Shown here piece by piece: positions 2,204 to 61,975 of a DNA stretch of 64,000 nucleotides (its first letter is position 1; every line of letters begins with the position of its first letter). Source of the DNA: a virus; IMG/VR virus record IMGVR_UViG_3300015203_000001, positions 1 to 64,000 of that record; one strand, given 5' to 3'. A program made the translations under genes and the position numbers. A model generated the notes under the pieces. That model was not told the origin of the DNA. It made no database searches and saw nothing but the letters and a program-made list of their open reading frames with translations.

Positions 2204-2232
2204 ACATATATATTATGGTGTGGTTTTCTGAA

Positions 2233-4431: not shown

Positions 4432-4461
4432 ACCTTAAATGATAAAGGGTCTTGTTAGACC

Positions 4462-4701: not shown

Positions 4702-4708
4702 ATTCTAT

Positions 4709-4981: not shown

Positions 4982-5319
4982 TTAAATACAATTTGTCCGT
5001 TTAATATCCTCTCTAGTCTAATTACTATATTCCCATGTATATATCTTGCTACTTTAGCATCAGATTTAAGATAATCTTCCATCTCTTTAATATTCTCTAA
5101 TATAATATCACAATCTGCAACCACTTTCTTAGAATTATTAATCATAACTCTTAATTGTGATCTAATAAATTCATTCTCTAACTCTGCATATGTAGGTTTC
5201 TTAGGTTTAGGAGGTAGTGGTGGCTTATATTCATATCCACCTCTCTCTATCTCTATTAAAGAGCAAACATTATCCCAAATCTGTTGTCCTTCTGGTGTTA
5301 ATTCTACTTCTTCTGGCAT
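4978..5319 (-). CDS. hypothetical protein (113 aa), Pro/Lys linker PPLPPKPKKP
   Basis: ORF track; co-directional; no catalytic motif. Confidence 0.55.
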   Translation of the reverse strand: MPEEVELTPEGQQIWDNVCSLIEIERGGYEYKPPLPPKPKKPTYAELENEFIRSQLRVMINNSKKVVADCDIILENIKEMEDYLKSDAKVARYIHGNIVIRLERILNGQIVFK

Positions 5320-5406
5320 GTATTCTTTATAGTTTTAATAATATTCTTCAAATATTCCATGTGCCTTGTAAATTAGATATGCCCCACTTCTATAAATCTC
5401 AATTGG

Positions 5407-5976: not shown

Positions 5977-6046
5977 GCTTTGCTGTTTTAATAATAACTA
6001 TATCTACTATTATTCCTACTATAATTATCCATAATAAGTATTCCAT
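5966..6046 (-). CDS. micro-ORF, 26 aa single-pass membrane peptide (MEYLLWIIIVGIIVDIVIIKTAKHES)
   Basis: Hand translation; below the ORF-track size cutoff; hydrophobic core plus charged tail; overlaps the start of 5407-5976; lies in the gap downstream of the endolysin operon segment. Confidence 0.25.
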   Translation of the reverse strand: MEYLLWIIIVGIIVDIVIIKTAKHES

Positions 6047-6062
6047 ACAGCAAATTTTAGAA

Positions 6063-6152
6063 CTAAATACAAATAGATAAAATTACTCCAAATATTACTA
6101 GTAATAGTATATATAATACTAACTCAAACCACCAATCTTCTCTAAATCTCAT
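6063..6152 (-). CDS. micro-ORF, 29 aa single-pass membrane peptide (MRFREDWWFELVLYILLLVIFGVILSICI)
   Basis: Hand translation; ATG 11 nt after the stop of 6164-6730; charged N-terminus followed by a hydrophobic stretch. Confidence 0.25.
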   Translation of the reverse strand: MRFREDWWFELVLYILLLVIFGVILSICI

Positions 6153-44002: not shown

Positions 44003-44043
44003 ATAATTTTTAAAAGATCAAAGGGAAGTTTCTACTTCCCTTT
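44003..44043 (-). terminator. terminator ending the leftward giant-gene block
   Basis: 10-bp perfect stem (44020-44029 / 44034-44043) that includes the stop codon of the 1589-aa ORF; U/A-rich tract downstream on the minus strand. Confidence 0.5.
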
Positions 44044-47000: not shown

Positions 47001-48801
47001 TCTCTAATTGATACCATGCATTATTAGATAAATCTTTAGTCTCTAATACATCTTCAGTGTCCATCAATGTATCTATATAGCTTTGTCTATCATCAGCATA
47101 TTCTCTTAATAATTTCTTCTGCTTTTCAACTTGTTTACTATACTCTTTCTCTCCTAGTAGTGCTACCAATTCCTTCCTATGTCCATCAGACTTTAGAGAA
47201 TTAAACTGTCCTGTAAACTCCTTAAATTCTTCATCTCCAATAATTTCAGGTATAGCTCCTACATCCATTATAGTAGTATTCTTCCTTCTCCAATCTCTTA
47301 ACTTCCTATATGTATCTTTGATTAATACATTCTTAGTCTCTCTGTCTACTGGAGCTACTTTAGCTTTATTATATGAACTCCAGAATACATTCTTAGCTTT
47401 AGCTTCTTCATTCACAAATTCAGGTGTAAATTTAGTTACAAAATTACCTGTCTCATGTCCATCTTTAGTTTTCTCCTTAAATATTTGATATGTCACTGCA
47501 TTAGACCCTAATATTCCCAGTTTCTTCAACTCTTGATTTAATTCTTTAAGTCTCTTTATTACATCAGGATTTAATCTGTCTGTCTCCTCTGCAACTTCTC
47601 TAGCTCCTCTTACATCATCAGCTATAGAACCTTGTAGAGTAGAAAACATTACCTGTGGTAATATGCCATTCTTAGAGAATATCCCCTGTGTTGGGTCCAT
47701 ACTCCACATACTAAACCAGTCAGTATCTCCTAATCCTGTTAACTCATTAGTTACTTCTCCATGAGTAAACTCTTTATCTCCATAAGTATTTTTAACTGAA
47801 GGATCACTATTCACCTGTGCTACAGTTACTTCCTTAATTTTATTAGCCAACTGTTCTTTATAACTAGTAGCTTGATCTGCCCATTCTTTAAACTTATCTC
47901 TTATTTCTTTACTCAATAAAAACTCTCCTGTAGACTTGCCATTATTATCAGTCTGAAATATTTCATCAGTTAAAAAGAAGGGATTTGCTACATCACTTCT
48001 AAATATTCCAGCTTGCTCATAGAAATCTACTAATGCTTTAGCATCTTCTAAATCAGCTACACTACTACTGTCTACTAATCTATCTATTCTATCCAAGTCC
48101 TTCATTACATAAGCTCCTATTGCAAGTGTTGTACTATTATTCTCTATCCTCAATATTTCATCTTCTAATCCCTCTTTATCTCTATTCTTATTCCCCACAT
48201 GAATACCCTCTATCTCCTCTCTTAATCTCCTCTTCTCAATGTTGGCTTTTACTCTCTCATCACTACTAGTTTGAGTACTATTAATCTTTTTATTAATATC
48301 ATTTAGTTTCTGTCTAGCAGATTTAAGTAAATCCTTCTTTAGTTGTAGAAATTTAGGTAGATAGCCTATAGTTATAGTATCTTCTATAGGATTACTACCT
48401 AACTGCTCAAAGCTATTAGGCCCAGTGTTACTATTAACCATATCCTGTTCTTCTTCCTCACTTGCACTATGAAACTCTTGTTTAGTATCAGTTTGATCTT
48501 TAGGGTCTAACTTACCATATTCATAATCTATATATCTAGGATTAACTCTAAATCTAATAGTTATAGGATCATATACAGATATTTGATTTATCTCTCCTCT
48601 AATATTCCCCTTAAATGACTTACTAGCTCTATCTATTAATGATTGAGCTATGGCATGAGCCTGTTCTTTACTCTTAGCCTTACCAGTATTAGTAATCTGT
48701 ATAGTATCTTCAGCTATTCTATTAAAAGTATATCTACCTTCAGTTAACTCACTAAAAGCCTTATCTAGTATAGCCTTATTTAAATCTGCCCTACAACTCA
48801 T
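44032..48801 (-). CDS. large virion / ejection (cargo) protein candidate, 1589 aa
   Basis: ORF track; long helical regions plus the glycine-zipper hydrophobic segment GAGSAALHGAAVGAFTFGPIGAAVGAIAGLALG (about 44876-44990). It follows the RNAP-containing giant gene. Confidence 0.7.
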   Translation of the reverse strand: MSCRADLNKAILDKAFSELTEGRYTFNRIAEDTIQITNTGKAKSKEQAHAIAQSLIDRASKSFKGNIRGEINQISVYDPITIRFRVNPRYIDYEYGKLDPKDQTDTKQEFHSASEEEEQDMVNSNTGPNSFEQLGSNPIEDTITIGYLPKFLQLKKDLLKSARQKLNDINKKINSTQTSSDERVKANIEKRRLREEIEGIHVGNKNRDKEGLEDEILRIENNSTTLAIGAYVMKDLDRIDRLVDSSSVADLEDAKALVDFYEQAGIFRSDVANPFFLTDEIFQTDNNGKSTGEFLLSKEIRDKFKEWADQATSYKEQLANKIKEVTVAQVNSDPSVKNTYGDKEFTHGEVTNELTGLGDTDWFSMWSMDPTQGIFSKNGILPQVMFSTLQGSIADDVRGAREVAEETDRLNPDVIKRLKELNQELKKLGILGSNAVTYQIFKEKTKDGHETGNFVTKFTPEFVNEEAKAKNVFWSSYNKAKVAPVDRETKNVLIKDTYRKLRDWRRKNTTIMDVGAIPEIIGDEEFKEFTGQFNSLKSDGHRKELVALLGEKEYSKQVEKQKKLLREYADDRQSYIDTLMDTEDVLETKDLSNNAWYQLENWDKQNSPFYGVTDFSKVIFDNHIDNYGKYNTFIPRRNTVELGKDEKGYNYTFKDTNTPTGYYNDTYEKYIENDSVLGKFHDLLVASNQFVRECLPYDKQLSFSTNSLPAMFKNSTELLADGTNTTNILRNLFESIRHIWEQIRLSFGVVEQSQNDYSEENAITGESERRVNDSFIANNQRAISERMTIEAARFLQAYNGGLKGGKLDKITRYTNLQLSKMDADSLLILAEYLGVPLTVQQARSKDVASIKKITGDSVEIGRIIRDFSTHTVVQAYSFDLAKLIKHGTYAAAMYSARVKAKPVIDIMKNDYESIKNPKLNNVSKQLFNIPGNKNATKGERDNAKKQIEDWYERVVLDDYGLRHTGIFGSTKEGALIGRKIYSTEDREKYNQLTDLISKETDDKTKTNLLNIRNNLGKTRTTTAAFNNLLAWIRTMRLGFNLSSGVTNYIEGWMSNMIIAATGEYFDPNMIYRGYATTYSSFWKNISYGKWEPGTSKKQRALMDKFKVVMNTANQLQESTEKTFSDKLEWIHPHAINERVEYNNQGALFNAMLRSSRDQDHTIKDKDGNISSLWDAYDNNGNLKDEFRTEENIKNWEDLQGDDYKTFEQKLSKALVLAHGNYDEMRGMMAKSTVLGKAGLMFKTWLPQQLYWRFAIEQDDLQSGNRGFKGKYRSYGAGSAALHGAAVGAFTFGPIGAAVGAIAGLALGKTYGTDSGVGLLRETMTSTLVLIKKMVGMPINTIAGRKLIDSSGKQFDNWIKEGKFTRQDANALKSNMADIANQLMLLGLMLMVKSLFWDDKGKSDSTERKAHNLLVNRIMQLASQAGMYVNPSDIYKSTIGSNGVIQYMTDLGKEIDAIDEALQGRDTVQSGVNAGKSHLWSQTKKTLVPGIFKSIESGGFGTQMQSQQQQSPFDYYFKSDEAKEKIEIKRERAERKLDLENKFTKQEYPDDDERKKVIKEELDEEIPTQAKLKKLGLTKKEYEDEYKKGK

Positions 48802-48805: not shown

Positions 48806-49249
48806 TTAAGTTAAGTTCTCTAATTTATATATTACGTGTGCTACTGTCTCTATTATATTATCTGTCAACTGTTGTATATATCCACTAGTAATATTCTCTC
48901 TATTAGTTTCTATCTCTTTCATCATAGCTTTAATATAAGGTATAGGTTCTAAATTATTCTGCATAGGCATATCCTTATATTTGTCCATTATACCTACCTT
49001 AGCATAAGATTTCTCTACTAATTCATCATTTAAGTCCCCTAATGCATCATAGAAAGCTCCAAGTGCATTATGTATCTCAAATGACTTATGTACAGCTTGT
49101 AAATGAGTTATATGCATTTGTATTTCTGCATTAAATAAACATTGAGATATATTTTGTATAGCTTGTTTCTCTGTAGTATTTTTACCATTACTAGTACTAC
49201 TTCTAGAAGTACCATACCTATCTGCTAGTGATGATCCTGTAATACTCAT
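48806..49249 (-). CDS. Dps/ferritin-like four-helix-bundle protein (candidate)
   Basis: 147 aa. HITHLQAVHKSFEIHNALGAFYDALGDLNDELVEK parallels the Dps string ..yHW.v.G..F..lH..l...y.......D.iAER. His60-Asp75-Glu79 have Dps-like spacing; His49-His60 is one residue short. Confidence 0.45.
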   Translation of the reverse strand: MSITGSSLADRYGTSRSSTSNGKNTTEKQAIQNISQCLFNAEIQMHITHLQAVHKSFEIHNALGAFYDALGDLNDELVEKSYAKVGIMDKYKDMPMQNNLEPIPYIKAMMKEIETNRENITSGYIQQLTDNIIETVAHVIYKLENLT

Positions 49250-49264: not shown

Positions 49265-52200
49265 TTATTTACATTTTTCATTTCTAATATCTAATTCTTT
49301 ATTTGGAAATTCTTCAGTAGGAGATAGTGTACCTAATACATCTCCACCTGTATCATCAGGGTCAAATGGTGGTAAGTCATAATTACTACCTTCATCATAG
49401 TAATTATTAAATTCATCTATATCACTCTCCTTCTTAGTCTCCTTATCTATAAATTCAAATATACTATCTATAGCTTGTACTGCTGCACTATCAGCTTTTA
49501 AATCTAACCCTAAATCTCTTAATATATTAAATATGAACTCTTTAAATACTTGCAATCTAGTTTTACCTGATTGCTTAAATTGATCTTTATTTAAATACTC
49601 CTGAAATGCTTTATTAGATATACTTCTAGCTAAGAACTCATATATATTAGATACACTGTAGTGTAATAATTCCTCTGGAGTTAGTCCTTGATCTTTAGCC
49701 TTTTTATCAGCTATAGATTTTAATATATTAGGGTCTGACTTACTCCTAACATCATTATATAATCTAACTATATCACTAACATAACTAGGAGAATTATTTC
49801 TTACATCTACACTTCCATCTGTATTCTGTGTGATATACTGCTGTATTCTACTAGCTGTAAGCATATGTACTACTTCTTCTAGTATTACACTTGCTAATTG
49901 TTCATTCTTTAGTACACCTATAGTATCTGGATTTATTCTAATATCATTATGTCCTATATTATAGGAACCATAGAATGCACTCTCTCCTGCCCATGTTACA
50001 TTATTATAACTTATATCAATATCTTTACTCACATAAGGTAATAATTCTTTAGCTAATGCTGAATAGCTCCCTAATTGATTATCAACAATTTTCTGTAAAG
50101 AATTAATAGCTTTCCCACTTTGAACATCAAAAATGTCAGCTTTTAGACTTTCTGGCAGGGGAATATTCTGTTTTAAAGCCTTCGTAGGTGAGATATTCCG
50201 GGGCTTAGTCTTATTCAAAATGGATAAGCCAACGTCAGAGCCTTTAGAATATTCATCCATACCAAAAGTTCCTAAGATTGGGATTTCAGAGTATTTTTCA
50301 CCATCAAATTTATATAATCTGATCTTTTTCTTAGTACTAACTGATCTATCATATACACTTACAAATGGATTAATACCTGCTAGTATATCTATATATGTTC
50401 CATCTTTCTGTTTCTTAAATCTCTTATTAAAATCATCTAATTTGAACTTATTCTTATTAGACACCATAGATTCAGGAGTATGCTGAATATATTGAGTAGT
50501 AAATGGAGATACTAAATGTTTTTCTCCATCTTCTTTATTTGCTTTAATACCTAACATATCTAATCCTTTCATAGTAGGAAGTCTATCATTCATTACTCTC
50601 ATTGTATATGCATATCCTATTTCAGTTAAATATCCTACTGAAGTATATTTAGTAAATTGTATAGCTTCCTGTTTAGCATTACCTAAGAATGAGTATGATA
50701 TAAGAGCTTGTGCTAGTGTATTTAAAGTATATTCTTTATTACCTATCTTTGGTAATTTAATGTCTATACTATTACCCTCCTTATCTTTCTTCTTAACTTC
50801 CAACATGGAAACTAGAGAATTATATAAGTAAGATTCATCATAACTCTCTCCTATAGCATTATTATATTTAATTAATGAGGGTTCACCAATTTTACTAGGT
50901 ACGTATTCTAATTTATTTAATAGTGGATTAGTCCTAATATATTTAATAACATTTCCTATTTTAATTTTTTCTTGTTTTTCTTCTTCAGTTAACTCTTTAG
51001 TTTCTTCATTTTTACTTCCTTTTATATCATATAACTGCTGCATATAGTATGCTAATGAAGTATTTTCATCTGTATCTATATACAACTCCTTCCTTAAACT
51101 GTTAGCAGTCTCATTATTTCCAAACATACCTGCCATTTCAAATGTAGCTAAGTACTTCTTTAATTCAGCAAATATATCTTGCTTTAATTCTATCTGTCTA
51201 GTAATATTATCACTATCATCTTGCTCTATTAGAGGAAGTATTTCATCAAATATAGCATTCATACTTACACTGTCATAAGGAAGATACTTATTCCATAGAT
51301 TATATGCTGTATTTACTGCTACTACATTAAATGCTCCTACTAATGTAGTAGGTTTAATCATCTGATCTCCTACTTCATAATATCCATCTTCTCTTAATTT
51401 CTGCCTTCCACTTTCTGATTGAGGTTTATCTTCATAATCTCCTATTAAACTATCTACATTTTCTATTTTAGCATTACCCTTACCCATCTCATTAAGAGCA
51501 TCTCTCTTAGCTATCACATTAAAATAAGACTTATCTAACCCCTTACTCTCTACATTTAATCCAGTTTGGATAGCTCTAATAGCTAATCCATACTTTTCCA
51601 TATCTAAAAATCTTAATAAAACAGCAGCCTGTAATTCTCCGTCTGCTCCACTATCTTTAATAGCTTTAAGCATATTAACTGAAGTCATTCTAGGAGATAC
51701 CCTATTATGATTATAATCTTCTTCTAATGCACCTACAAAATACTTAGTTATTAACTCATTTTTAATTCTTTCTTTAGCAGCCTTACCATTCTCAAAATTA
51801 GATAGTCTACCTACATTGGAAGTAGCATTAGATAATTTATTTACATACTCTCTAATTATAGGTTGAGACATAAATCTCATAGCTAAACTACCACCATCAG
51901 TTCCTTTAAATAGTCCAGTTAGATTAAATATTTTCTGCACATCCAAAGTATATTTATTAAGATTTACTCTATTCATAATCTGTAACTTCTCATGATCTAC
52001 TCCAGTTTGAGCCACTTCATCTAATACATTAGATATATCTCTATCTCCTTCTTTACCATTTACATCCATAGTTCTAGAACTCCCCAACTCAAAGTGACTT
52101 TCTATATCTCCAAATTTCCATATCTTATTATGTGCTTTACCTTCACTATCTACCCATATTAATTTTAAAGGTTTACCTTGTGCTTTAGCTTGTTGAGCTT

Positions 52201-55200
52201 GTGCATGAAAAGTTACATCCATACTATATGCCCCTTTGCCTAGACCTCCTGTTGCACCTCCTATTAACTTCTGTTTCTGATATTCTCCACTTAATGCTGT
52301 CCAATAAGTATCATTTTTAGGTGTAGCTTTCTCTATTATATCAGCTTGATCTTCTGTAAACTTAGTATTAAGTACAGAATTTATTTTAGCCTGTAATTTT
52401 TTATTTGGATTTGAATATACAGATTGATATATTTCTATTATCTTATTTTGTGTTAATTGATCTTCTAATTTAGCTTGAGCATCTATAAGAGAATCTTGTT
52501 GTTCTATTTCATTATCTGTATAATCTTCTATCTCTTCAGATTTAAGTACACTATCTATTAGCTTATCAGCACTTTCAAGTCTTAGTCTATTATTCTTAAA
52601 GTCAGCATCATGCTTAGATAGTATCCTAGATTTATGATTTGAACTTAACTTCTCTATCTTACCATCTTCATTCTGATAATGATAATAAGCATAAGTATTC
52701 TCTTTATCCACATCAAAGTCTAATCCCTTAATCTTAGTGTAGATACTAGGAAGTATCATTAAATCTCCTTGTTGTGCAGGTAAAAATCCTGCAATCTCTA
52801 TACTACTTCCACTACCTAATCCAGTTGTAGGTATTCTAAATCCTATTAATTGTAGTAACTCTTTATCAAACATTTCAGGTCTAATATGATAACTCTTATC
52901 TTCAGATTGAGTTATATATTTACCACTTCCATCTTCATTCTTCTCAAATAGATTTATTAATTTACCATTATTATCTTTAAATTTAGAAGTTACAAATACT
53001 TGTGATTTACTTATTTTACCTACCTTACTTAGCTTATTTTTACTAACATATTCTTTTAGTTCTGCTTCGGTATTAAATTGCTTAGAAGTACCATCTTTTA
53101 AATTAACCCACCATTCATCTTCTTTTTCTCCTTTAGGATCAGGTACTGCTCCTGCAAAAACTATTTTACTACTATTTTCATCATATATGGCTTGTAATTC
53201 AGAGCCATTCCAAGCAGAAGTATATATAATCTTAGATTGATCTACTCCTTTTAAATCAGCTTGTAACTTAAATCCTTCAGGACTTCCAGCTACAAATGAA
53301 TTACCATGAAACTTTAACTTAGCTATCCTATTAGTAACTATTGAGTTCATTAAAGCCTCAAACTTATTACTATTAATACTACTCCATATAGGTAATACAA
53401 ATTCATTAATAATATTACCATCAGGGTCTTTCCTAAAATCTAATCCTTTAGTAGTCTGTACTGGTAATCCTCTATTATTAGCCTCTTTTAATAGTAGCTT
53501 CTGTAACTTCTTAATTGCCCTATCTTTATCTACAGGTACTCCATGTTTATCTAATCCTAATTCATTATATAATTGTTCTTTCTTACTCTGTATTAATTTA
53601 ATATGTAAATCATTATATTCTTTATGTAACCACTCTCCAGTTCTCTTTTCTCCTTGATAATTAAAACCATCAAAGGACATCACATCATTACCAAACAGTA
53701 GTTTCATTAATTGAGTCCCATAACTAACAAAATCAAATCCCTGTTTACTAGATTTAAATGGCACTTCCTGTTGTATTCTAAAATTCTTTCTGTCTAATAT
53801 TAGTCCACTAGCTCCTAAATTCTCTTCTTTAGTAGTAGTACTATCTGGTATTACCAAATTATCCATTGAACCTTCTATAAATCTACCATCTCTATCCCAT
53901 ATAGTTCTAGCATTCTTTAATGCTCCTACTTTATTAGCTGATTGATATGAAGCTCTTACTCCCATCCCCTTATATTTATCTGAACTCTCTAATGCTTCCA
54001 TCTTCAACCTTAACTTATCAATCTCCATTCCAGCAGTTAATTGAGGAATGAGTGGAAATGCAGAAGATTTAATATAAATATCTCTCATTACATCTTGTGC
54101 TTCATCAAATTGCTGTCCAGTATATACAGGCTTCATAGGTTGCATTATCTTACCTATTAACTTCTGTTGTCTATCTGTTAGTTGTTCTTTAGTGGTTTTA
54201 GAAGAAAATAAATCCCTAGCCTCCTGTATTTCAGCAGCAGTTATATCTATGATAATTTCAGGCATCTTGCCTAATTTCTCCATTAGATTTAAATGCTCTG
54301 TCCATGTAGTATATTCTTGTGCATCTGAAGCCTCTATATCAAAGAATCCACTACTGTTAGGATATTTTTCTTTAAGTCTATCTATATTCTCTCCTTTCTG
54401 TAACTGCTCATACTCTCCATCACTCATCTCTTTACCATCATTTATTCTAGTAGAGAACTTCATAAATGCTTTATCTGCTATACTACTTCTATCTTTAATA
54501 AATAACTGTATATATTTCTCATTCTCACTTTCAGCAGGTGAAGTTCCCGGAGCTATCTGATTAGCTAATCTCTTACCTATATTAATGAAGGTATCCTTAG
54601 CCATCTGTATATAATCTTCCTTCTCATCACTTTTAAACTTCAAAGCAGGGTCACCTGCAAATAGCATAAATGAATTAGCTAATGAAATCATTTGATTTGT
54701 AACTAAATCTAATGCAGCCATATTAGCCTTTTCATCTAAAGAACCACTGAATTTCTTAGGTTCATCTATATAATCAGTACTTATAAAATTAATACTACTA
54801 ATAGTTCCATCTGCATTAGTATCTACTATTTTATTATTCTTCCAATTAGTTAATTTCTCCTCTTTAAGACTATTAATATTATCTCTAATAGCCTGATTAA
54901 TCCTACTCATTAAATCTTCATTCTTCTCTATTTCCTCTATTGTGATAGTATCAGGCTCATTCTTAATAGCATCTTTCAGATACACTCCATTCCCATAATC
55001 TAATGTATTAAGACTAGGCATCATTAAAAATAATGAAGCTCCTTCATCATAACCTTTAATATTAGTAGCTTTAACTATAGAATGAAACATGCTCATTCTT
55101 TCTAGTTCAGGTTTGACCACTTGAGTATACACCAATTTTATAACCTCATCTGATAACTTCTGCCCATTACCTAAATCTTTATTCTTAAAATTTAATACTG

Positions 55201-58200
55201 GTACAGTTAGTGGGATAGCTATATGTTTATCAGACATAGTTGGCCCTAGCATAGTAGCCCATCTCATATCTATACTAGTACCGGGATAATCTCTATGTAC
55301 TACTCCTTTATCATCTTTAAATACTACTTCCCCCTTAGTCATATCAAAGAACATATTATTAGAAGCAGTCTCATAATCTAAATCTCCTAACTTATCTATT
55401 CCTTTATCAGATTTAAATTTATTACCTAATATATCTAGTGCTGTAAATCCTATATGACTAACATCAAACTTACTCCTAAAATCTTCATCATCCATTAGAT
55501 TCAACCACATAGAATTTCTAGAGAATGAAATTTTCTTCAACTGCCCTCTTAGTGGAGAAATATCACTCTTTAACTCTAAAGCTCTAGTAGTGACAAATTT
55601 TCTTGCAGTAATAGCAAAATATGACTTACCATTATCTCTACCTCCATAGGGGATATGTGTAGTATCATATTTAGTCTGTAAACTAGCTAATGTCTTTATT
55701 ATAGTCTGGTTAATAGGAATATCACTACTTTTCTTAAATGAGTGATCTTCAGGTTCATCAATTAATGACTTTAATTTAGATGATAGTATTCCAAATAATC
55801 CACTAGTCTCATTAAATAATTTCTCCCAACTATGCTTCTTATAATTATGATAAAACTTACCAGCCCTAAGATCATCCATAGTTTTATCACTAACTATAAT
55901 GCCAAACTTAGATAACCACTCTTGCATTTGGTGATTAGTAGCTATAATCTTATTATAATTCTTAGAATCTCTAAATTTAGTACTAAAATCATCTACTAAT
56001 ATTTGAGCTTTCTTCTTATTGAGTACAAGATTATTCTCTGCATCTGTCTCTTTAAATACTAAGTCACTAATAGTAAATCTACTCACCCAATCTTTCATTA
56101 TAGCATCTGCTACTCCTCCCTTACCAGTATCCCATAATGATGCCTTAAATATAGCTGGCTTATTTCCGTAAGCAGGTGTATACTCTATCATAGTAAACTT
56201 CATCCTAAGTGGAGACATAGACATTAATGAAGTAAACTGATATTTTATTTGTTGATTAGCTCCACTTAATTTAGTCACTAATCTATCTTTCCAAGACTGT
56301 TCATTTAACTTATTCTTAATACCTTCTAATAAATCATCAAATCTACAAGGTATATCTGCTAGTGTGGGCTGTAATACTTGAATTATTTTACTAGAATCTT
56401 CATAAGTATCTAATCCAAACACTCCTTTCTTACCTGTAGGTATAGCTTTTAAGAATATTCTGACAGCACTACTAACTCCATTTTCAGGATTTCTAGTTAG
56501 AGATTCATCAGCCCACTGATTATCATGTTCATCATCTGTGCTGTCATTTATATCCCTATCATTATCATCACTACTCTCCTCTTTCTGTCTAACTAAATCT
56601 ACTCCATTTACTTTCTCTATTTCAGCTATAGCTTTGTCTATTAATGGTTGTATATTATTCTTAACTCTATTAATCCTATCTATCTTCTTGATTATAGTAG
56701 CTACTAAATTAGGAATATTACCTGCTGTTTTTTGTTCAGGATGTTCATTTAACCAATTATTCCAAAAGATTACTTCTCCCTTATATACCTCTATAGCAGG
56801 CTCTATAGCTTCTTTAAATATTCTCTTAGTATTCTCCTCTACTTTAGACTTTAAGATTACTCCTCCATCATCTTCAAATGCCTGAAACATTTGGTTAGTA
56901 AAATAACTTACTATTTCACTCTCTTCTATCTCGTTTAAATCTCCTATTCTATTTAACTCACTAGTCACTTGAACCCTCTCTCCTGTATTTAACTCTCTAG
57001 GTGATTGAAGATCATCTATACTCTCAATATTAAAATCTAATCCCAATTCCTTCAACTTATTCATCCTCTCTCTAAGTAGAACTTCCACATCTGTTTCAGG
57101 TTGTGGTTTAATCTCATCTAATTCTTTTTTAACCTCATCTACTTTCTCTTTAATCTCCTCTGGTTTAGTTAATACTTGTGCCTCTTGTTCTTCCTTCTGG
57201 CTACTCAACTTATAGCTAACCATATTATCACTACTCACATACTTAGGCTTCTCTTTAGTACCTATATTTACACTTCTTATATTAGTAGTGTAATTCTTTA
57301 ATATATAATCTCTATAACTATCAGCAGCATTACTAACTTTTCCCTGTTCATCTATATATACTATAGGTCTATCTTCTTGAGAACCTCTAATATCATAGTT
57401 CATCTTATGGCTCCCTAATATAGATACTTTACCATTTGGAGTAGTAATTTGAGATTTTAGTATATTATTTAATATAGATGTAACTGTTTTAAGTTTATCT
57501 CTTGTACTTGTATCATTTCTAGTCACTCCGGGTTTAGGCTCTCCAATACTACTACTAAGATCATAATTAAAAGTAGTATTATGTTGACCAAATAACACTC
57601 CACTACCTCCTTGAAGGAAAGTCACAAATCCGGTTATAGGTTGTACTCTATTATTACCATTAGCATCTACACCTCCTTTTCTTACTCTATTATCTGATTT
57701 AGTTTTAATCTGATTTAATGCAGCTTGCTTATTAGTAGCTTTTATTAATCTAATATCATTAATATATAAACTAATAAATCTCTGTATATCAGTTGCATCA
57801 GTAATATCTAATTTAGTAGCTTCTTGTATATCATCTTTAGTTTTCTTATATAACTTTTCAAAATCAGGATGAAATCTATTAATAAATATCTTCAGAGCTT
57901 GAAATATAGTAGTCTGTATCTCTTTAGTTATGGGTTGAGGACTAACTTCCATAGCTGTCCAAATCTTTCTGCCATCACTATGAGTACCAGTTCTATATAA
58001 AGCATATGATAATCCTATCTTATAAGGATTTTCTTTTATATCCCTTAATATTATATTTTCATTTGGATTTCCTAGTCTATCTTTAGTAAATGCATCTTTA
58101 TTATTAATGGTTAATTCACTAGTATCTTCAGCTATTGCAAATACAACTTCAGGATTAGCTTCAGAGAAGGGAATAAACTCATACATAGGTTTACCATCTG

Positions 58201-61200
58201 GTAGTTTACCTATTACTTTAGTCTTAAAAGGATCAAATGTAGTTGGTCTATTCTCTGTTATCTGGATAACCTCTTTTCCATTATTAGCTAATGCAGCTTT
58301 CCTAATAGCCATAGTATTATCTATAGCCATTTTCATCTCCTCTGGATTACCTTCATTAAATCTGTATTCATGATACCATCCAATATCATGCACAAATCCT
58401 AATCCTTTCTCTCCTTCTTTAGCTCCTTTATCATATACTATAATAGGTATCTTACTTATATATTCATCAGATTTAGGGTCTTTACCTACTTTCCATTCTC
58501 CCCATGTTACAGCCTTCCCCTTACTACCATCTGCATTATAGATAGGTATAATTATACTATCTACATTCTCTGGTATTCTAATATCTAATTGAGTACCTAC
58601 CCCATAATTATCATAATCTAGTATCTTAAATGGATTAATATTATCCCCCTCTTTTAATTCATCACTAGTATAATCATAAGAGATAGTAACAGTACCATCA
58701 TCATTAAGAGTAGTAAGCATATCTGCTGATCTAACAGATTTAGCTATCTTAGGATTAGGATTATTAGTTACTTTAGATTTATATTGTATCTTTCCACTTA
58801 ATACTGGTTGATTATCATTATCAAATTCTACAGGATTACCTGACTTCTCTATAGTATCCTTTTCACTTTGATTATTATTTACAGTAACTATTTCATCATC
58901 TTTCTGTTTACCATCTAATAATACTTTATTTAGAATCTGGTCAAATATAGCTTTAGGAGTGGCATCTAATAGTCTCTTTTTAATGTCATCAAAGTCTGCT
59001 GTTTTATTATTTAATTGCCACCCTAACTTTAATGTATCATATGCTGTCCTTACATATTTATCTCCATAATTACTAATTAATCCTTTCACTAAATCCTCAA
59101 AATTAGTGCCATGCCCTAATTCATTAGCCATATCTGATACTGCATTCTTTAATTGACTTTTTTCATCATCAGATAGAGTACTAGGATTTACTTCTATAGG
59201 TGATTGCAGATTAACTAATCCTCTAGTTTCTATAGTTTCATAGTTCTGTTTATTCTGGTTTTCAGCTCCCTTTAATAAATCAAAAGCTAATCTAGGAGCA
59301 TTTAATTTATTAGCTACTTCATATCCTACATTTCCTAGATTCTGTAGCCATGATATATAGTTTGGATTTGTACTTGCATCTATTTTAGGTACTTTATAAA
59401 CCTCTGCTGCATAATCTAGTAGTTGTTGTGTAGCAGCAGTATCTACTCTATGTTGTTCATTTGGTAAGTCAATTCTTTTAAGCTCACTATTTTGTGGTAC
59501 AGTAGAAGTAGATTTAGTCATAGGTAATACAACTTTAGCTACTAATTGTTGTACTGTATTAAATCCCTTTAATACTTCAGGATTATTCTTAGGTTGCTCT
59601 ATTTCCTCTGTCTGTTGTTGTTCAGGATTAACTATCTCATTAGTCTCTTGTACAGCTTGATTCTGCTGTTGAGCTTCATTCTTAATTCCATCAGCTATAT
59701 CTTTAGCTTTTAAAGCATCTTGCTTATCTTTAGCTATTTTCTTAGTAGTATTATCTAATACTGATTGTATTTGCTCATTAGTTCTAGCATTTTTAATTGC
59801 TTTCTCTTTCTGTGTTTGTATAAATTCAGGGTTATTCCATTGAGCTAATCTCTTTCTTTGTAAACTAATAGCATCATTAAGTACTGCTTTCTTAATAATA
59901 GCCTTTTGATATAAATAATTCTTACTATCTATATTACCTCTAATTATATCATTATCCTTAGCTCTTACTTCAGGATCAATAGTATCATCTGCTTCTATTT
60001 CATCAAGTCTATTCTTAATCTTAGTAGCCTTAGTCTGATTTTCGTCTATTAGTTTATTAATATTTTCTTTCTCATATGCATCTTCAGTTTGTGCATACTG
60101 CTCCTTTAACCTTTCAATCTGCACTTGATGTGCATACAACTCATATTCAGTATCATATTTCTCCTTACCTACTGGACTCAATAAAGTATATTGATCTAAT
60201 GTAGGTCTAATCTGATTAATATTAAGTTCATTCTTACCTTGTTCATCTAACCATGTATTTAGATTATAGTGTTGCCTAGTTATAAGAGGTACAAAATTTC
60301 TAGTATGTCTACTAGCCACTTTAGTGTAACTATCCTTTATTCTATTAGCATCATCTATATAAGTCTGAAATTCTCTCTTAACTTGCTCTACCTGTTCAGG
60401 TTTAACATCTCCGTATAAATCCTTAATATTATCATAATTCCCACTATTAACTTGGTCTAAAGTAGACTTTAGAAAATTAAGATGTGAGTTTGCTATATCT
60501 CCTTTATTAGCCTGACTATCTAACTGTAACCCATCTAGTAATTTAGAAGTAAAGAAATTCCTTCTAACTGCAAATGCATCATCTGTTTTTCCTTGTTTAT
60601 CTAACTCCTTTAATCCATTAATAGTACTATCATGCATAGTAACTACATTCTTCAAGTAATCATCATATCTCTCATTAAATGCAGCTATTTTATTCTTATT
60701 AACAAAATCTTGAGTAGCCTTCATAGCAGGTCCAATTAATAGTGAACCTAGAAATCCAGAAGCTACCATATTAGCAAATTCAGGGGATTGTATATCTTTA
60801 CTTACTCTCTCTAAAACATTAGTATCATCCTTCTCTAACCCTCCTAATACCATAGCATGATGTTCACCTTCATTCTGAAATATAGGTATTCCACCAGCTT
60901 CTATAGCCTCTATTCCACTACCCAATCCTTTAGTAGTAGCCCATCCAGCAGCTTTACCTAATTTACTTTCTCCAAATGCTCCTGCTAAATGTTCTAATCC
61001 TTTCTCTAATTCCCCTTCAGCTACTCCAGCTATTGGATTAAATACCATAGCTCTAAATGCTAATATATCTAGTGGTAGTTGTGCTAGTGTTAATCCAAAA
61101 TCTACTCTAGCCCCTGCACTAGCTAGGTGCTGTTTTTCTTCTTCTGTAAATGGAGTTCCATCTGGATGTTTAGAATTACTTAACTTCTCATAAGTATTTT

Positions 61201-61975
61201 TAAAATTATTTTGAGCTTCAAATCTAGCCTCTGAATATCTAGCTAAACTGGCATATACAGTAGCAGCCCCCTTCATTCCCTTAGCTAAATCTAATCCTCC
61301 CATTACAACTTCTGCTGCATTCTTAGCTCCCCATAAATTCTTAATATTCTTAGCTAAATTAGCTGCTGCAACTGCTGTACCTGTACCTCCAGTACTAGCC
61401 TCTATTAATGCTGTAGTACCTAATGCTGCTAATCCAGTTCCTACTAATGTACCTAATTGTGGTAACATTTCATTAGCCCACCATCCTACATCTCCTGGAC
61501 TAAAACTACCTTTATCTTTCTCAAATATTTGATTATTCTTAGCTACATTAGTACTCCAATTCATTAAATCTTTAGTATGCACACCCATAAATGATGAATC
61601 AAAATCATCATCACTACCAGTAATAAAGCCTTTAGCTGTATTAGCTGCACCTACTAAATCAAAGGTACTAAGTAGAGATTGCCCAAATGAGGATGCTAGA
61701 TTAGCTCCTCCAACTAATAATCCTCTACCTACTTTACTCCAATTAGATTGAGCTTTAGCTGATAATTCATCTACTCCTGTAGTAAATGGAGTAGGATTCT
61801 TTATATATTCATAATAAGGATTAGAAGGATCAAATTGGTAGTTTGATGTAGTTGAAGAAGCAGTATTTCTTGATTGTGGAGCAATAGGAGCTACTGCAAT
61901 ATTATCTGCAATACTATCTAACAAGTCTGGAACTTGTATTGGAGTTTGTGATTGACCTCTTTTTGAAGTAGACAT
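49265..61975 (-). CDS. giant virion protein (4236 aa) containing a two-DPBB RNA polymerase module (crAss-like vRNAP)
   Basis: GFRIPTTGLGSGSSIEIAGFLPAQQGDLMILPSIYTKIKGLDFDVDKEN parallels beta-prime NRAPTLHRLGIQAFEP...HPL...NADFDGD. The upstream KLKFHGNSFVAGS resembles the beta-subunit RHGNKGV. The N-terminus has Gly/Ala-rich hydrophobic segments. Confidence 0.8.
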   Translation of the reverse strand: MSTSKRGQSQTPIQVPDLLDSIADNIAVAPIAPQSRNTASSTTSNYQFDPSNPYYEYIKNPTPFTTGVDELSAKAQSNWSKVGRGLLVGGANLASSFGQSLLSTFDLVGAANTAKGFITGSDDDFDSSFMGVHTKDLMNWSTNVAKNNQIFEKDKGSFSPGDVGWWANEMLPQLGTLVGTGLAALGTTALIEASTGGTGTAVAAANLAKNIKNLWGAKNAAEVVMGGLDLAKGMKGAATVYASLARYSEARFEAQNNFKNTYEKLSNSKHPDGTPFTEEEKQHLASAGARVDFGLTLAQLPLDILAFRAMVFNPIAGVAEGELEKGLEHLAGAFGESKLGKAAGWATTKGLGSGIEAIEAGGIPIFQNEGEHHAMVLGGLEKDDTNVLERVSKDIQSPEFANMVASGFLGSLLIGPAMKATQDFVNKNKIAAFNERYDDYLKNVVTMHDSTINGLKELDKQGKTDDAFAVRRNFFTSKLLDGLQLDSQANKGDIANSHLNFLKSTLDQVNSGNYDNIKDLYGDVKPEQVEQVKREFQTYIDDANRIKDSYTKVASRHTRNFVPLITRQHYNLNTWLDEQGKNELNINQIRPTLDQYTLLSPVGKEKYDTEYELYAHQVQIERLKEQYAQTEDAYEKENINKLIDENQTKATKIKNRLDEIEADDTIDPEVRAKDNDIIRGNIDSKNYLYQKAIIKKAVLNDAISLQRKRLAQWNNPEFIQTQKEKAIKNARTNEQIQSVLDNTTKKIAKDKQDALKAKDIADGIKNEAQQQNQAVQETNEIVNPEQQQTEEIEQPKNNPEVLKGFNTVQQLVAKVVLPMTKSTSTVPQNSELKRIDLPNEQHRVDTAATQQLLDYAAEVYKVPKIDASTNPNYISWLQNLGNVGYEVANKLNAPRLAFDLLKGAENQNKQNYETIETRGLVNLQSPIEVNPSTLSDDEKSQLKNAVSDMANELGHGTNFEDLVKGLISNYGDKYVRTAYDTLKLGWQLNNKTADFDDIKKRLLDATPKAIFDQILNKVLLDGKQKDDEIVTVNNNQSEKDTIEKSGNPVEFDNDNQPVLSGKIQYKSKVTNNPNPKIAKSVRSADMLTTLNDDGTVTISYDYTSDELKEGDNINPFKILDYDNYGVGTQLDIRIPENVDSIIIPIYNADGSKGKAVTWGEWKVGKDPKSDEYISKIPIIVYDKGAKEGEKGLGFVHDIGWYHEYRFNEGNPEEMKMAIDNTMAIRKAALANNGKEVIQITENRPTTFDPFKTKVIGKLPDGKPMYEFIPFSEANPEVVFAIAEDTSELTINNKDAFTKDRLGNPNENIILRDIKENPYKIGLSYALYRTGTHSDGRKIWTAMEVSPQPITKEIQTTIFQALKIFINRFHPDFEKLYKKTKDDIQEATKLDITDATDIQRFISLYINDIRLIKATNKQAALNQIKTKSDNRVRKGGVDANGNNRVQPITGFVTFLQGGSGVLFGQHNTTFNYDLSSSIGEPKPGVTRNDTSTRDKLKTVTSILNNILKSQITTPNGKVSILGSHKMNYDIRGSQEDRPIVYIDEQGKVSNAADSYRDYILKNYTTNIRSVNIGTKEKPKYVSSDNMVSYKLSSQKEEQEAQVLTKPEEIKEKVDEVKKELDEIKPQPETDVEVLLRERMNKLKELGLDFNIESIDDLQSPRELNTGERVQVTSELNRIGDLNEIEESEIVSYFTNQMFQAFEDDGGVILKSKVEENTKRIFKEAIEPAIEVYKGEVIFWNNWLNEHPEQKTAGNIPNLVATIIKKIDRINRVKNNIQPLIDKAIAEIEKVNGVDLVRQKEESSDDNDRDINDSTDDEHDNQWADESLTRNPENGVSSAVRIFLKAIPTGKKGVFGLDTYEDSSKIIQVLQPTLADIPCRFDDLLEGIKNKLNEQSWKDRLVTKLSGANQQIKYQFTSLMSMSPLRMKFTMIEYTPAYGNKPAIFKASLWDTGKGGVADAIMKDWVSRFTISDLVFKETDAENNLVLNKKKAQILVDDFSTKFRDSKNYNKIIATNHQMQEWLSKFGIIVSDKTMDDLRAGKFYHNYKKHSWEKLFNETSGLFGILSSKLKSLIDEPEDHSFKKSSDIPINQTIIKTLASLQTKYDTTHIPYGGRDNGKSYFAITARKFVTTRALELKSDISPLRGQLKKISFSRNSMWLNLMDDEDFRSKFDVSHIGFTALDILGNKFKSDKGIDKLGDLDYETASNNMFFDMTKGEVVFKDDKGVVHRDYPGTSIDMRWATMLGPTMSDKHIAIPLTVPVLNFKNKDLGNGQKLSDEVIKLVYTQVVKPELERMSMFHSIVKATNIKGYDEGASLFLMMPSLNTLDYGNGVYLKDAIKNEPDTITIEEIEKNEDLMSRINQAIRDNINSLKEEKLTNWKNNKIVDTNADGTISSINFISTDYIDEPKKFSGSLDEKANMAALDLVTNQMISLANSFMLFAGDPALKFKSDEKEDYIQMAKDTFINIGKRLANQIAPGTSPAESENEKYIQLFIKDRSSIADKAFMKFSTRINDGKEMSDGEYEQLQKGENIDRLKEKYPNSSGFFDIEASDAQEYTTWTEHLNLMEKLGKMPEIIIDITAAEIQEARDLFSSKTTKEQLTDRQQKLIGKIMQPMKPVYTGQQFDEAQDVMRDIYIKSSAFPLIPQLTAGMEIDKLRLKMEALESSDKYKGMGVRASYQSANKVGALKNARTIWDRDGRFIEGSMDNLVIPDSTTTKEENLGASGLILDRKNFRIQQEVPFKSSKQGFDFVSYGTQLMKLLFGNDVMSFDGFNYQGEKRTGEWLHKEYNDLHIKLIQSKKEQLYNELGLDKHGVPVDKDRAIKKLQKLLLKEANNRGLPVQTTKGLDFRKDPDGNIINEFVLPIWSSINSNKFEALMNSIVTNRIAKLKFHGNSFVAGSPEGFKLQADLKGVDQSKIIYTSAWNGSELQAIYDENSSKIVFAGAVPDPKGEKEDEWWVNLKDGTSKQFNTEAELKEYVSKNKLSKVGKISKSQVFVTSKFKDNNGKLINLFEKNEDGSGKYITQSEDKSYHIRPEMFDKELLQLIGFRIPTTGLGSGSSIEIAGFLPAQQGDLMILPSIYTKIKGLDFDVDKENTYAYYHYQNEDGKIEKLSSNHKSRILSKHDADFKNNRLRLESADKLIDSVLKSEEIEDYTDNEIEQQDSLIDAQAKLEDQLTQNKIIEIYQSVYSNPNKKLQAKINSVLNTKFTEDQADIIEKATPKNDTYWTALSGEYQKQKLIGGATGGLGKGAYSMDVTFHAQAQQAKAQGKPLKLIWVDSEGKAHNKIWKFGDIESHFELGSSRTMDVNGKEGDRDISNVLDEVAQTGVDHEKLQIMNRVNLNKYTLDVQKIFNLTGLFKGTDGGSLAMRFMSQPIIREYVNKLSNATSNVGRLSNFENGKAAKERIKNELITKYFVGALEEDYNHNRVSPRMTSVNMLKAIKDSGADGELQAAVLLRFLDMEKYGLAIRAIQTGLNVESKGLDKSYFNVIAKRDALNEMGKGNAKIENVDSLIGDYEDKPQSESGRQKLREDGYYEVGDQMIKPTTLVGAFNVVAVNTAYNLWNKYLPYDSVSMNAIFDEILPLIEQDDSDNITRQIELKQDIFAELKKYLATFEMAGMFGNNETANSLRKELYIDTDENTSLAYYMQQLYDIKGSKNEETKELTEEEKQEKIKIGNVIKYIRTNPLLNKLEYVPSKIGEPSLIKYNNAIGESYDESYLYNSLVSMLEVKKKDKEGNSIDIKLPKIGNKEYTLNTLAQALISYSFLGNAKQEAIQFTKYTSVGYLTEIGYAYTMRVMNDRLPTMKGLDMLGIKANKEDGEKHLVSPFTTQYIQHTPESMVSNKNKFKLDDFNKRFKKQKDGTYIDILAGINPFVSVYDRSVSTKKKIRLYKFDGEKYSEIPILGTFGMDEYSKGSDVGLSILNKTKPRNISPTKALKQNIPLPESLKADIFDVQSGKAINSLQKIVDNQLGSYSALAKELLPYVSKDIDISYNNVTWAGESAFYGSYNIGHNDIRINPDTIGVLKNEQLASVILEEVVHMLTASRIQQYITQNTDGSVDVRNNSPSYVSDIVRLYNDVRSKSDPNILKSIADKKAKDQGLTPEELLHYSVSNIYEFLARSISNKAFQEYLNKDQFKQSGKTRLQVFKEFIFNILRDLGLDLKADSAAVQAIDSIFEFIDKETKKESDIDEFNNYYDEGSNYDLPPFDPDDTGGDVLGTLSPTEEFPNKELDIRNEKCK
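52706..52720 (-). other. DxDxD metal-binding motif (DFDVD, residues 3086-3090)
   Basis: Minus strand gac ttt gat gtg gat; coordinates checked against the ORF frame. Confidence 0.7.

Follow-up and report, generated by a model that had tools for sequence, protein, structure and literature searches.

A divergent fused member of the giant virion RNA polymerase proteins of crAss-like and Flavobacterium FpV4-like phages

In Cellulophaga phage phi14:2, the genes are ordered gp68, gp67 (1797 aa), gp66 (2180 aa) and gp65 (1421 aa), and gp66 is a two-barrel RNA polymerase (PDB 6VR4) which, according to the paper on its crystal structure, is packaged and then translocated for transcription of the early genes, with a zincin domain residing on gp65. 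The Connector of the enzyme was defined in the same paper as gp66 residues 1095-1238. Phage crAss001 packs three RNA polymerase-associated cargo proteins, which must partly unfold to exit the capsid. Fused polyproteins have already been described in the gp66 paper and in further literature, and the cultured phage FpV4 carries a fused homologue of 4287 aa, gp32 (YP_009594088.1), annotated as 'virion structural protein', for which a literature search for FpV4 virion proteomics yielded nothing usable. Polymerase and zincin-like metallopeptidase are also combined in one very large multi-domain virion protein among the polyvalent phage proteins (Iyer et al. 2017, PMC5512222), which include the virion RNA polymerase (vRNAP) gp50 of coliphage N4.

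Here we describe a 4236-aa protein with a calculated mass of 476.8 kDa, which is encoded on 64,000 nucleotides of viral DNA (positions 1 to 64,000 of IMG/VR record IMGVR_UViG_3300015203_000001; the window in the following). Since it has the fused form that is normal for the giant virion RNA polymerase protein in crAss-like and Flavobacterium FpV4-like phages, this giant protein does not represent a new kind of protein; it adds a divergent member to a known family, with the closest identity found amounting to 44-50% and being limited to the polymerase core. It very probably unites in one chain three units that are separate and neighbouring in phi14:2, and would serve as a packaged, ejected and early-transcribing polymerase. 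Module A (aa 1 to ~1640) would hold the position of gp67, module B (aa ~1640-3915) would be the two-barrel DNA-dependent RNA polymerase equivalent to gp66 with the catalytic motif DFDVD, and module C (aa ~3950-4200) would represent the zincin-like metallopeptidase domain found at the N-terminus of gp65. The order of the modules is the order of the phi14:2 genes; where phi14:2 has three separate genes, the gp67-like part, the gp66-like part and the zincin part of gp65 are here in one chain.

The giant gene and its neighbourhood

The giant gene is a single uninterrupted frame with an ATG start, in agreement with the preliminary description of this DNA (Table 1). Nothing significant was retrieved with the whole protein from Pfam and NCBIfam and, as phmmer with the whole protein gave no match in the PDB, profiles were required. 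In the window, ORFs of 612, 4236, 147 and 1589 aa follow each other, all on the minus strand, and this order is collinear with gp31-gp33 of FpV4 and g068-g065 of phi14:2. Similarity of the 612-aa upstream ORF to phi14:2 gp68 was not found. The 1589-aa ORF, which is of the same type as the downstream gene gp33 of FpV4, shows weak, collinear similarity to gp65 residues 958-1217 (E 0.004) and is devoid of HExxH; by position, it would be the rest of a gp65-like protein minus the zincin domain. The 147-aa gene that follows the giant gene here has no counterpart at this place in FpV4. TerL is located on the minus strand at 2233-4431, ~40 kb from the giant gene at the opposite end of the window.

A sigma-70 promoter scan, the consensus of which excludes Bacteroidetes-type promoters, returned fewer promoter-like sites than shuffled sequence, and a scan of the giant gene returned no meaningful internal terminator, so that an internal promoter at the module borders is unsupported within the reach of this consensus.

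FpV4 gp32 is of nearly equal length and has the same module order as the giant protein. The two proteins are collinear with ~30% identity over aa 1522-4179 and match weakly over aa 1108-1407, whereas the N-terminal 1100 aa are without detectable pairwise similarity. FpV4 possesses the motifs DYDID and HEVIH where the giant protein has DFDVD and EEVVH, and the beta-prime-like barrel of the giant protein contains ~48 extra residues (~aa 2940-2990) compared with FpV4.

Table 1. Coordinates of the giant gene, its predicted modules and motifs, and the neighbouring genes in the window (DPBB, double-psi beta-barrel)
Feature	Position	Strand	Basis
Whole giant ORF (modules A+B+C)	49265..61975	-	phrog_16227 'virion structural protein', E 2.8e-239 (PHROGs)
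Module A, N-terminal conserved Gly/Ala-rich all-helical domain, aa 60-620	60116..61798	-	alignment A3, HMMER, AlphaFold2
Module A, K/E/Q-rich poorly conserved stretch, aa ~600-930	59186..60178	-	composition, 16-sequence alignment
Module A, second half, aa 925-1640	57056..59203	-	alignment A7; clade-only conservation
Module B, crAss-type two-barrel virion RNA polymerase, aa ~1640-3915	50231..57058	-	profiles A8/A5 vs 6VR4_A; BLASTP to gp66
Putative beta-like DPBB, aa ~2600-2735 (QPMK2615, YIK2636, ANK2682VGA)	53771..54178	-	directly before Connector equivalent
Connector equivalent, aa ~2733-2885	53321..53779	-	alignment to gp66 1098 to ~1230
Beta-prime-like DPBB, aa 2886 to ~3100, starting at KLKFHGNSF	52676..53320	-	alignments to gp66, FpV4
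Catalytic DxDxD motif DFDVD, aa 3086-3090	52706..52720	-	aligns with gp66 DFDID (1361-1365), FpV4 DYDID
Module C, zincin / SprT-like metallopeptidase-like domain, aa ~3950-4200	49376..50128	-	alignment A2, hhalign, Pfam, PDB profile matches
Variant zincin motif EEVVH, aa 4033-4037	49865..49879	-	HExxH in most relatives
147-aa ORF between giant gene and next large gene	48806..49249	-	phrog_858 'starvation-inducible transcriptional regulator', E 1.9e-15
1589-aa ORF, FpV4 gp33 homologue	44032..48801	-	BLASTP to FpV4 gp33 E 3e-43; phrog_14721

Modules of the giant protein

As read from the alignments, the module borders are marked by relatives with split genes. In one of them (L029), the equivalent of giant aa 98-1635 is encoded by its own 1473-aa ORF and the polymerase by a 2698-aa ORF, and in another (L023) the zincin region (giant aa 3984-4181) is found on a separate downstream ORF; the RNA polymerase ORF, which is separate in both, corresponds to giant aa 1767-3914 in L023 and to aa 1967-3837 in L029. 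The earlier proposal that the polymerase is fused to further modules holds, as modules A and C flank module B. The accompanying figure of ~2800 aa of unknown modules is to be reduced, since aa ~1640-2880 (~1240 residues) are the polymerase's own N-terminal part, and it is aa 1 to ~1640 that are extra.

The polymerase is the best characterized of the modules. Profiles A8 (aa 1638-2568) and A5, both built without phi14:2, matched 6VR4_A over chain residues 110-933 (E 2.8e-44) and 880-1775 (E 1.1e-140), jointly covering chain residues 110-1775 with aa 1638-3454 of the giant protein, and pairwise BLASTP to gp66 (E 9e-13) aligned both motifs. Homology of module B to gp66 extends over gp66 ~96 to 1761, and spans both barrels, the Connector, the DxDxD motif and the trigger-loop region of the solved enzyme, which substantiates the crAss-type two-barrel virion RNA polymerase recognized in the preliminary description. 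Similarity of the giant protein to the last ~400 residues of gp66 is not detectable, and the profile of aa 3440-3960 found no match in the PDB including 6VR4. It had also been stated correctly that in gp66 the catalytic motif sits much nearer to the N-terminus (DFDID at 1361) in a protein of about half the size (2180 aa). A T7-like single-subunit polymerase core was not found upon searching the whole protein with Pfam, PHROGs and NCBIfam, and the N4 polymerase chain is absent from the PDB sequence and profile matches of the whole protein and of modules A, B and C.

Across 27 aligned relatives, the three aspartates D3086, D3088 and D3090 of the catalytic motif, which lies exactly where it had been placed, are all invariant. 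G2891, R3047, P3049, S3055, P3066 and G3084 are likewise invariant, H2890 is not among the conserved columns, and the motifs are, to judge from this alignment, not chance occurrences. The two best-conserved 50-residue segments of the protein are aa 3051-3100 (identity 0.56) and aa 2601-2650 (0.55). The beta-like barrel would be located at aa ~2600-2735, before the Connector equivalent, with K2682 invariant and K2615, K2636 and G2684 nearly invariant; in the Connector equivalent, FRIQQEVP at giant 2733 aligns with WKLQQDLP at gp66 1098. KLKFHGNSF had previously been considered as the marker of the beta-like barrel, and its position (residues 2886-2894, DNA 53294-53320, with H2890 196 residues before D3086) is confirmed, but the assignment was rejected: the motif aligns with KLKTNGGSF of gp66 (~1231-1239) at the end of the Connector, which puts it at the margin of the beta-prime-like barrel. 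An AlphaFold2 model of aa 2530-3450, calculated with too few full-coverage sequences as input, had a mean pLDDT of 53 with the Connector stretch modelled best, and Foldseek of this model against the PDB yielded noise only, with no match at E <= 0.001.

Module A starts with a helical domain for which exhaustive searching with HMMER gave 72 cluster representatives. In full-length matches, this domain begins within the first ~210 residues, in giants of 3667-6106 aa and in proteins of 1000-1800 aa alike, and its invariant residues include Q76, D106, G179, G199, E249, E356 and E359 (alignment A3). The AlphaFold2 model (pLDDT 76.5) is entirely alpha-helical; Foldseek returned N-terminal pieces of crAss-like structural and RNA polymerase-associated proteins from BFVD, and neither the model by Foldseek nor the profile found a match in the PDB. 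The previous characterization of the N-terminus as Gly/Ala-rich and moderately hydrophobic is appropriate: Gly+Ala amount to 20% in aa 1-200 and 27% in aa 201-400 versus 7-17% elsewhere in the giant protein, and small-xxx-small-xxx-small motifs are 3.7 times as dense in aa 1-450 as in the remainder. Within the whole protein, 19-residue windows with a Kyte-Doolittle value >1.2 start only at aa 173-175, 293-301 and 400-403, and they peak at 1.3-1.4, under the usual transmembrane cut-off.

Profile comparisons point to a probable relationship between the helical domain and the gp67 N-terminus of phi14:2. Directly compared by hhalign, the domain profile matched gp67 residues 626-670 weakly but collinearly (77.5% over 45 columns), in the K/E/Q-rich stretch of aa ~600-930; the ORF upstream of the polymerase in a further relative (L082) matches gp67 with E 4e-13, and its same region matches the domain profile with 89.5% and E 2e-6 (hhalign). 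It is this N-terminal domain alone through which gp67 can be linked to module A, with moderate probability. The adjacent stretch of aa ~600-930, in which K+E+Q reach up to 35% (aa 601-800), shows low conservation and frequent gaps in a 16-sequence alignment. In the profile comparisons, aa 925-1640 is conserved only inside the clade and is without a known relative, as the respective profile (A7) matched neither gp67 (0.5% probability) nor PDB sequences; in the split relatives L029 and L023 this region closes a separate upstream ORF. A homologue search with aa 1-1550 against a word-based index, apparently consisting mostly of fragments, returned nothing.

Module C escaped the preliminary description, which reported no HExxH in the first 2800 aa and missed the C-terminal domain, where the motif is EEVVH. 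Profile A2 of this domain matches gp65 residues 209-356 (hhalign 97.3%, E 1.6e-11), and Pfam SprT-like (PF10263) is found in 12 of 18 members (best E 5.1e-6), the giant protein itself giving E 0.21. By these comparisons module C is homologous to the zincin domain, with an incomplete canonical metal site: the first His of HExxH is replaced by Glu, the GAA codon of which is two base changes away from CAY, and E4034 (the catalytic residue), H4037 and E4113 further downstream are all kept (alignment A2). As the replaced residue is the first zinc-binding His, activity of the zincin-like domain is uncertain. EExxH is found in 6 of the 28 giants in which the motif was located and, as the remaining domain is conserved in them, its recurrence could point to a retained but altered function.

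Beyond the family, the module C profile matches an internal stretch of podovirus ejection proteins of the T7 gp16 class, namely Pectobacterium phage PhiM1 gp48 (PDB 8VB2, E 3.6e-5) and an 'internal virion protein' (9SFN chain G, E 4.4e-5). The 9SFN match covers HExxH and the downstream 'EF' helix, and the 8VB2 match only the region of the 'EF' helix; both are short (51-143 profile positions) and weak, and the rest of these proteins is unrelated to the giant protein. The T7 gp16 class possesses a lytic transglycosylase domain, whereas none was found in the giant protein. The layout of N4 vRNAP, with an N-terminal putative membrane-active part, the polymerase and a C-terminal domain, matches that of the giant protein. 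The N4 polymerase, however, is a T7-like single-subunit enzyme with a fold unrelated to the two-barrel enzyme, and sequence similarity between N4 and the giant protein was not found; the likeness is a design analogy and not family membership.

Frequency of the fusion and fate of the chain

A scan of IMG/VR with the single sequence found no relative, and the related loci were recovered by an alignment-based scan. Searching for contigs that encode the exact protein gave no record. Among 80 such viral contigs, 48 encode a fused protein, with the catalytic motif more than 2500 aa into an ORF of 3600-5900 aa, and 42 of the 72 cluster representatives of the N-terminal domain are at least 3600 aa long. 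Fusion is neither unusual nor exceptional, but the commonest arrangement among the relatives, with FpV4 and the literature providing further cases. The separate neighbouring genes in phi14:2 and in 5 of the 80 related loci could raise the suspicion that the long ORF is an artefact, with two or three genes having been merged through the loss of a stop codon or through a mistake in sequencing or assembly. Such an origin has a practically negligible probability and was rejected, as the same continuous ORF occurs in the 48 independent contigs and in cultured FpV4 with the motif at a similar distance from the start, an identical 4236-aa protein is present on a record from a 95.9-kb contig, and alignments to the relatives L003, L007 and L011 are collinear over the full length.

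With the fusion being genuine, the question arises whether the chain is cut. The giant protein could be a true polyprotein, cleaved after packaging or ejection at the A/B (~aa 1600-1700) and B/C (~aa 3915-3950) borders, either by the zincin-like domain it carries or by a different protease, to free a ~2300-aa gp66-like polymerase, a serious possibility to which we give somewhat less than even chances. The gp66 paper calls fused forms 'likely cleaved into individual components', and zincin peptidases have been proposed as processors of polyvalent virion proteins (PMC5512222); in addition, the module borders are gene borders in the split relatives, the A/B border falls within an E/K-rich stretch (aa 1594-1650), and the zincin motif keeps its catalytic Glu together with the second His and the distal Glu. 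On the other hand, the first zinc ligand being Glu instead of His makes self-processing doubtful, and the literature covered describes neither a cleavage site nor cleavage of any fused homologue. Alternatively, though this appears rather unlikely, the chain might remain uncut as a single membrane-tethered enzyme, with an N-terminal inner-membrane anchor, a cytoplasmic polymerase and a non-proteolytic regulatory or binding zincin-like domain, having converged with N4 gp50. The arrangement of N-terminal domain, polymerase and C-terminal domain described for N4 vRNAP, which is likewise joined to a zincin domain (PMC5512222), the EExxH variant in an otherwise conserved domain, and the retention of the fusion by most relatives are consistent with an uncut chain, but the split relatives show that the modules are able to work as separate proteins, the hydrophobic segments are weak, and no sequence similarity to N4 gp50 emerged when the PDB was searched with profile A2. 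Clearly improbable, finally, is a scenario in which the His-to-Glu change has abolished self-cleavage in this lineage, so that the 477-kDa chain is ejected and works uncut and membrane-tethered, as a convergent two-barrel equivalent of N4 gp50 whose former peptidase domain is reused for regulation or binding.

Proposed role in infection and significance

As a packaged, ejected and early-transcribing polymerase that unites three units in one chain, the giant protein would be located in the virion, to extrapolate from phi14:2, crAss001 and N4. It would be packed inside the capsid as cargo and threaded at least partly unfolded through the tail, either preceding the DNA or accompanying it. Passage across, or anchoring at, the cell envelope may be aided by the amphipathic N-terminal module, and the polymerase would refold in the cytoplasm and subsequently transcribe the early genes. 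The zincin-like domain may cut the chain into modules or act on another substrate.

Current understanding is not overturned by these findings. Their weight is modest: the giant virion polymerase proteins found in FpV4-like and crAss-like phages gain one divergent member, and the recurrence of EExxH is a minor oddity open to testing. The design parallels that of N4 vRNAP in joining a polymerase to a zincin-like domain and to an N-terminus that is putatively membrane-active, and exactly this relationship to N4 vRNAP has been flagged by a 2026 paper as needing investigation. Taken together, fused and split relatives provide a residue-level map of three modules, which could guide the design of constructs for expression and structural work on the two uncharacterised modules.

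A divergent member of a family of giant virion proteins

The 4236-aa protein (hereafter the giant, whose residue numbering is used throughout) belongs, as an ordinary but divergent member, to a known family of giant virion proteins. The single reading frame of the preliminary description holds, with an ATG start and no interruption, and the calculated mass of the product is 476.8 kDa. It matches the 4401-position PHROGs profile phrog_16227, 'virion structural protein' (E 2.8e-239), and an identical protein is recorded from one contig of 95,884 bp. Strong matches among GenBank phages are restricted to Flavobacterium psychrophilum phages of the FpV4 group (31% identity over aa 2610-4179, 27% over aa 1522-2573). 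As FpV4 gp32, annotated 'virion structural protein', has 4287 aa and is followed by gp33 of 1596 aa, the same fused architecture is present in a cultured phage; the 1589-aa ORF of the window is homologous to gp33 (E 3e-43).

The window covers much of a phage genome and includes a large terminase subunit gene; its final 20 kb form a minus-strand block with ORFs of 612, 4236, 147 and 1589 aa. A 764-aa protein matches RIIA lysis-inhibitor families (E 3e-60). The 147-aa ORF, which separates the giant gene from the 1589-aa gene, has its match in phrog_858, 'starvation-inducible transcriptional regulator' (E 1.9e-15), while FpV4 has no gene at this place. Where the minus-strand block switches to a plus-strand block, the 1589-aa ORF ends within a perfect 10-bp hairpin that has a T-rich tail on either strand and looks like a bidirectional terminator.

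Coordinates of features in the window and in the giant
Feature	Window positions	Strand	Giant residues
Large terminase subunit	2233-4431	-	
Family A DNA polymerase, helicases, RIIA-like protein		+	
764-aa protein, RIIA families	31583-33877	+	
Hairpin	44020-44043		
Stop codon of 1589-aa ORF	44032-44034		
147-aa ORF	48806-49249	-	
Giant ORF	49265-61975	-	1-4236
Zincin-like motif EEVVH	49865-49879	-	4033-4037
Catalytic motif DFDVD	52706-52720	-	3086-3090
Insertion relative to FpV4 gp32	~53006-53155	-	~2940-2990
KLKFHGNSF	53294-53320	-	2886-2894
Module A, helical N-domain first			1 to ~1640
Module B, RNA polymerase			~1640-3915
Module C, zincin-like			~3950-4200

A two-barrel RNA polymerase within the chain

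The earlier assignment of a double-psi beta-barrel RNA polymerase is right, as is the location of its DFDVD motif. By BLASTP, giant aa 2328-3091 align with residues 778-1366 of gp66, the virion RNA polymerase of Cellulophaga phage phi14:2 (E 9e-13), pairing KLKFHGNSF with KLKTNGGSF and GLDFDVDK with GSDFDIDK. A core profile of 27 sequences built without phi14:2 (giant aa 2564-3454) matches residues 880-1775 of PDB 6VR4 chain A at E 1.1e-140, and a profile of aa 1638-2568 (21 sequences) matches residues 110-933 of the same chain at E 2.8e-44, which places the start of the polymerase module near aa 1600-1690. Thus, ~1240 of the 'about 2800 aa of unknown modules' are polymerase, while the remainder indeed lies outside it. 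With 2180 aa and DFDID at 1361, gp66 carries its catalytic motif nearer the N-terminus in a protein about half the giant's size, as had been stated. The profile of aa 3440-3960 has no PDB match; this region falls in the polymerase ORF of the split relative L023. The AlphaFold2 model of aa 2530-3450 reached a pLDDT of 53, and its Foldseek output was noise.

KLKFHGNSF is found where it was described, but does not belong to the beta-like barrel. The Connector between the two barrels comprises gp66 residues 1095-1238 (gp66 paper) and KLKTNGGSF lies at ~residues 1231-1239, so that KLKFHGNSF marks the boundary between the Connector and the beta-prime-like barrel. As WKLQQDLP at gp66 1098 pairs with FRIQQEVP at giant 2733, the Connector equivalent starts at ~aa 2733 and the beta-like barrel must come before, at ~aa 2600-2735. 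Conservation along the giant peaks in this region and around DFDVD (identity 0.55 for aa 2601-2650 and 0.56 for aa 3051-3100, respectively). In the 27-sequence alignment, K2682 (in ANKVGA) and G2891 are invariant and K2615, K2636 and G2684 nearly so, with H2890 outside the conserved columns. By pairwise alignment, the gp66 trigger loop (1598-1636) would correspond to giant ~aa 3313-3351. The beta-prime-like barrel contains a ~48-aa insertion compared with FpV4 gp32, in the core stretch where relatives are most gapped.

On a contig of 303,242 bp (L083:10001-14530; ena:ERZ25067879:ctg72840), a protein of 1509 aa, P0002, is homologous to the polymerase core. It shows 37% identity across 98% of giant aa 2530-3450 with ANKVGA and DFDID intact, and lacks the N-terminal module and the zincin domain. 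It stands alone among bacterial housekeeping genes (pyruvate:ferredoxin oxidoreductase, FKBP, ABC permease, MutS-like, amidohydrolase, aconitase); it could be what is left of a phage, or a two-barrel polymerase that a bacterial chromosome has captured.

The flanking modules

The N-terminus is Gly/Ala-rich as described (Gly+Ala 20-27% in aa 1-400 versus 7-17% elsewhere), and small-xxx-small-xxx-small motifs are 3.7x denser there than elsewhere. Its hydrophobicity is borne out in part: moderately hydrophobic 19-residue windows occur in the whole protein only with starts at aa 173-175, 293-301 and 400-403, but the Kyte-Doolittle maximum of 1.3-1.4 is under the usual transmembrane threshold. In aa 601-800, K+E+Q reach up to 35%. 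Giant aa 1-746 share 36% identity with the related loci L003 and L007, and eight more relatives align; invariant residues include Q76, D106, G179, G199, E249, E356 and E359. When aa 60-620 were searched exhaustively with HMMER, 72 cluster representatives were found, 42 of at least 3600 aa (3667-6106), 10 of 1000-1800 aa and 20 shorter (many fragments), and in full-length matches the domain is N-terminal, starting within the first ~210 residues. The AlphaFold2 model is all-helical (pLDDT 76.5) and retrieved nothing from the PDB with Foldseek; in BFVD its matches, with E 1.5e-4 to 5e-3 and low TM-scores, were the N-terminal parts of 'structural proteins' from crAss-like phages, of large polyvalent proteins and of a 'putative RNAP associated protein fused to zincin protease'.

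A relationship of module A to phi14:2 gp67 is suggested indirectly. The ORF directly upstream of the polymerase in the related locus L082 matches gp67 (E 4e-13), and the N-domain profile matches the same region of this ORF (89.5%, E 2e-6), compared with 77.5% over 45 columns for gp67 directly. For residues 925-1640, conservation is seen inside the clade, with no match to gp67 or to PDB sequences.

Zincins combine an HExxH helix with a Glu on a later helix (PMC5512222), the pattern that is seen in module C, where E4034 (second motif residue), H4037, Y4106, E4113 and F4114 are invariant among 18 sequences. The module C profile matches phi14:2 gp65 residues 209-356 (97.3% probability, E 1.6e-11), Pfam SprT-like matches 12 of the 18 alignment members, and the PDB matches are 9sfn_G, 'internal virion protein' (E 3.6e-5), and 8vb2_A (E 4.4e-5), which is gp48 of phage PhiM1, a tetrameric ejection protein and the counterpart of T7 gp16. 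The giant has EEVVH where FpV4 gp32 has HEVIH. This His-to-Glu replacement, two base changes from CAY to GAA, is found in six of 28 giants with a motif found by regular expression; the other five (P0027, P0033, P0038, P0053, P0057) are divergent, the rest of the domain is conserved, and by similarity rank the six are interspersed with HExxH forms. As the downstream 1589-aa ORF has no HExxH and weakly matches the later part of gp65, the zincin domain of this clade is located on the polymerase chain and not on the gp65-like protein.

Fused and split arrangements and the proposed route into the host

An alignment-based scan of IMG/VR gave 485 relatives, 80 loci of which were fetched; they allow the comparison of fused and split forms that the preliminary description had called for. 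The catalytic motif lies >2500 aa into the ORF in 48 of the 80 (uninterrupted ones 3873-5366 aa), while in five the polymerase has an ORF of its own, 2200-2700 aa long, in which the motif is at ~position 1350-1530. In another five (L050, L051, L058, L060, L075) the fusion partner of the polymerase is the downstream, not the upstream, protein, with ORFs of ~4300-4450 aa, the motif at ~residue 1620 and DFDVDS in place of the DxDxDK of most relatives. One locus is intermediate, seven are cut by the contig end, and 14 from gut metagenomes (L040-L042, L046-L048, L053, L070-L072, L077, L078, L080, L081) are fragmented, with the motif in ORFs of <1000 aa under the standard bacterial code, which fits the stop-codon reassignment and interrupted polymerase genes published for some crAss-like groups. 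Module borders follow from split relatives: in L029, giant aa 98-1635 correspond to an own 1473-aa ORF with the polymerase separate, and in L023, aa 934-1655, 1767-3914 and 3984-4181 are on three different ORFs. Together with the tally, these borders show that the fusion is real, common and evolutionarily labile.

The cargo of phage crAss001 includes three RNAP-associated proteins that need partial unfolding to leave the capsid. In every case the N4 virion RNA polymerase carries a fused zincin peptidase, for which a role in processing the chain has been proposed (PMC5512222), and a 2026 N4 paper raises the question of the relationship between the three crassvirus proteins and the three N4 vRNAP domains. 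What we show here are homologies and module borders; inferred from phi14:2, crAss001 and N4, the most likely course would be that the giant is packaged as capsid cargo and ejected at least partly unfolded, that the amphipathic N-terminal module helps the chain to cross the envelope or to be anchored there, and that the zincin-like domain possibly, though uncertainly, processes the chain, while the polymerase would refold and transcribe the early genes.
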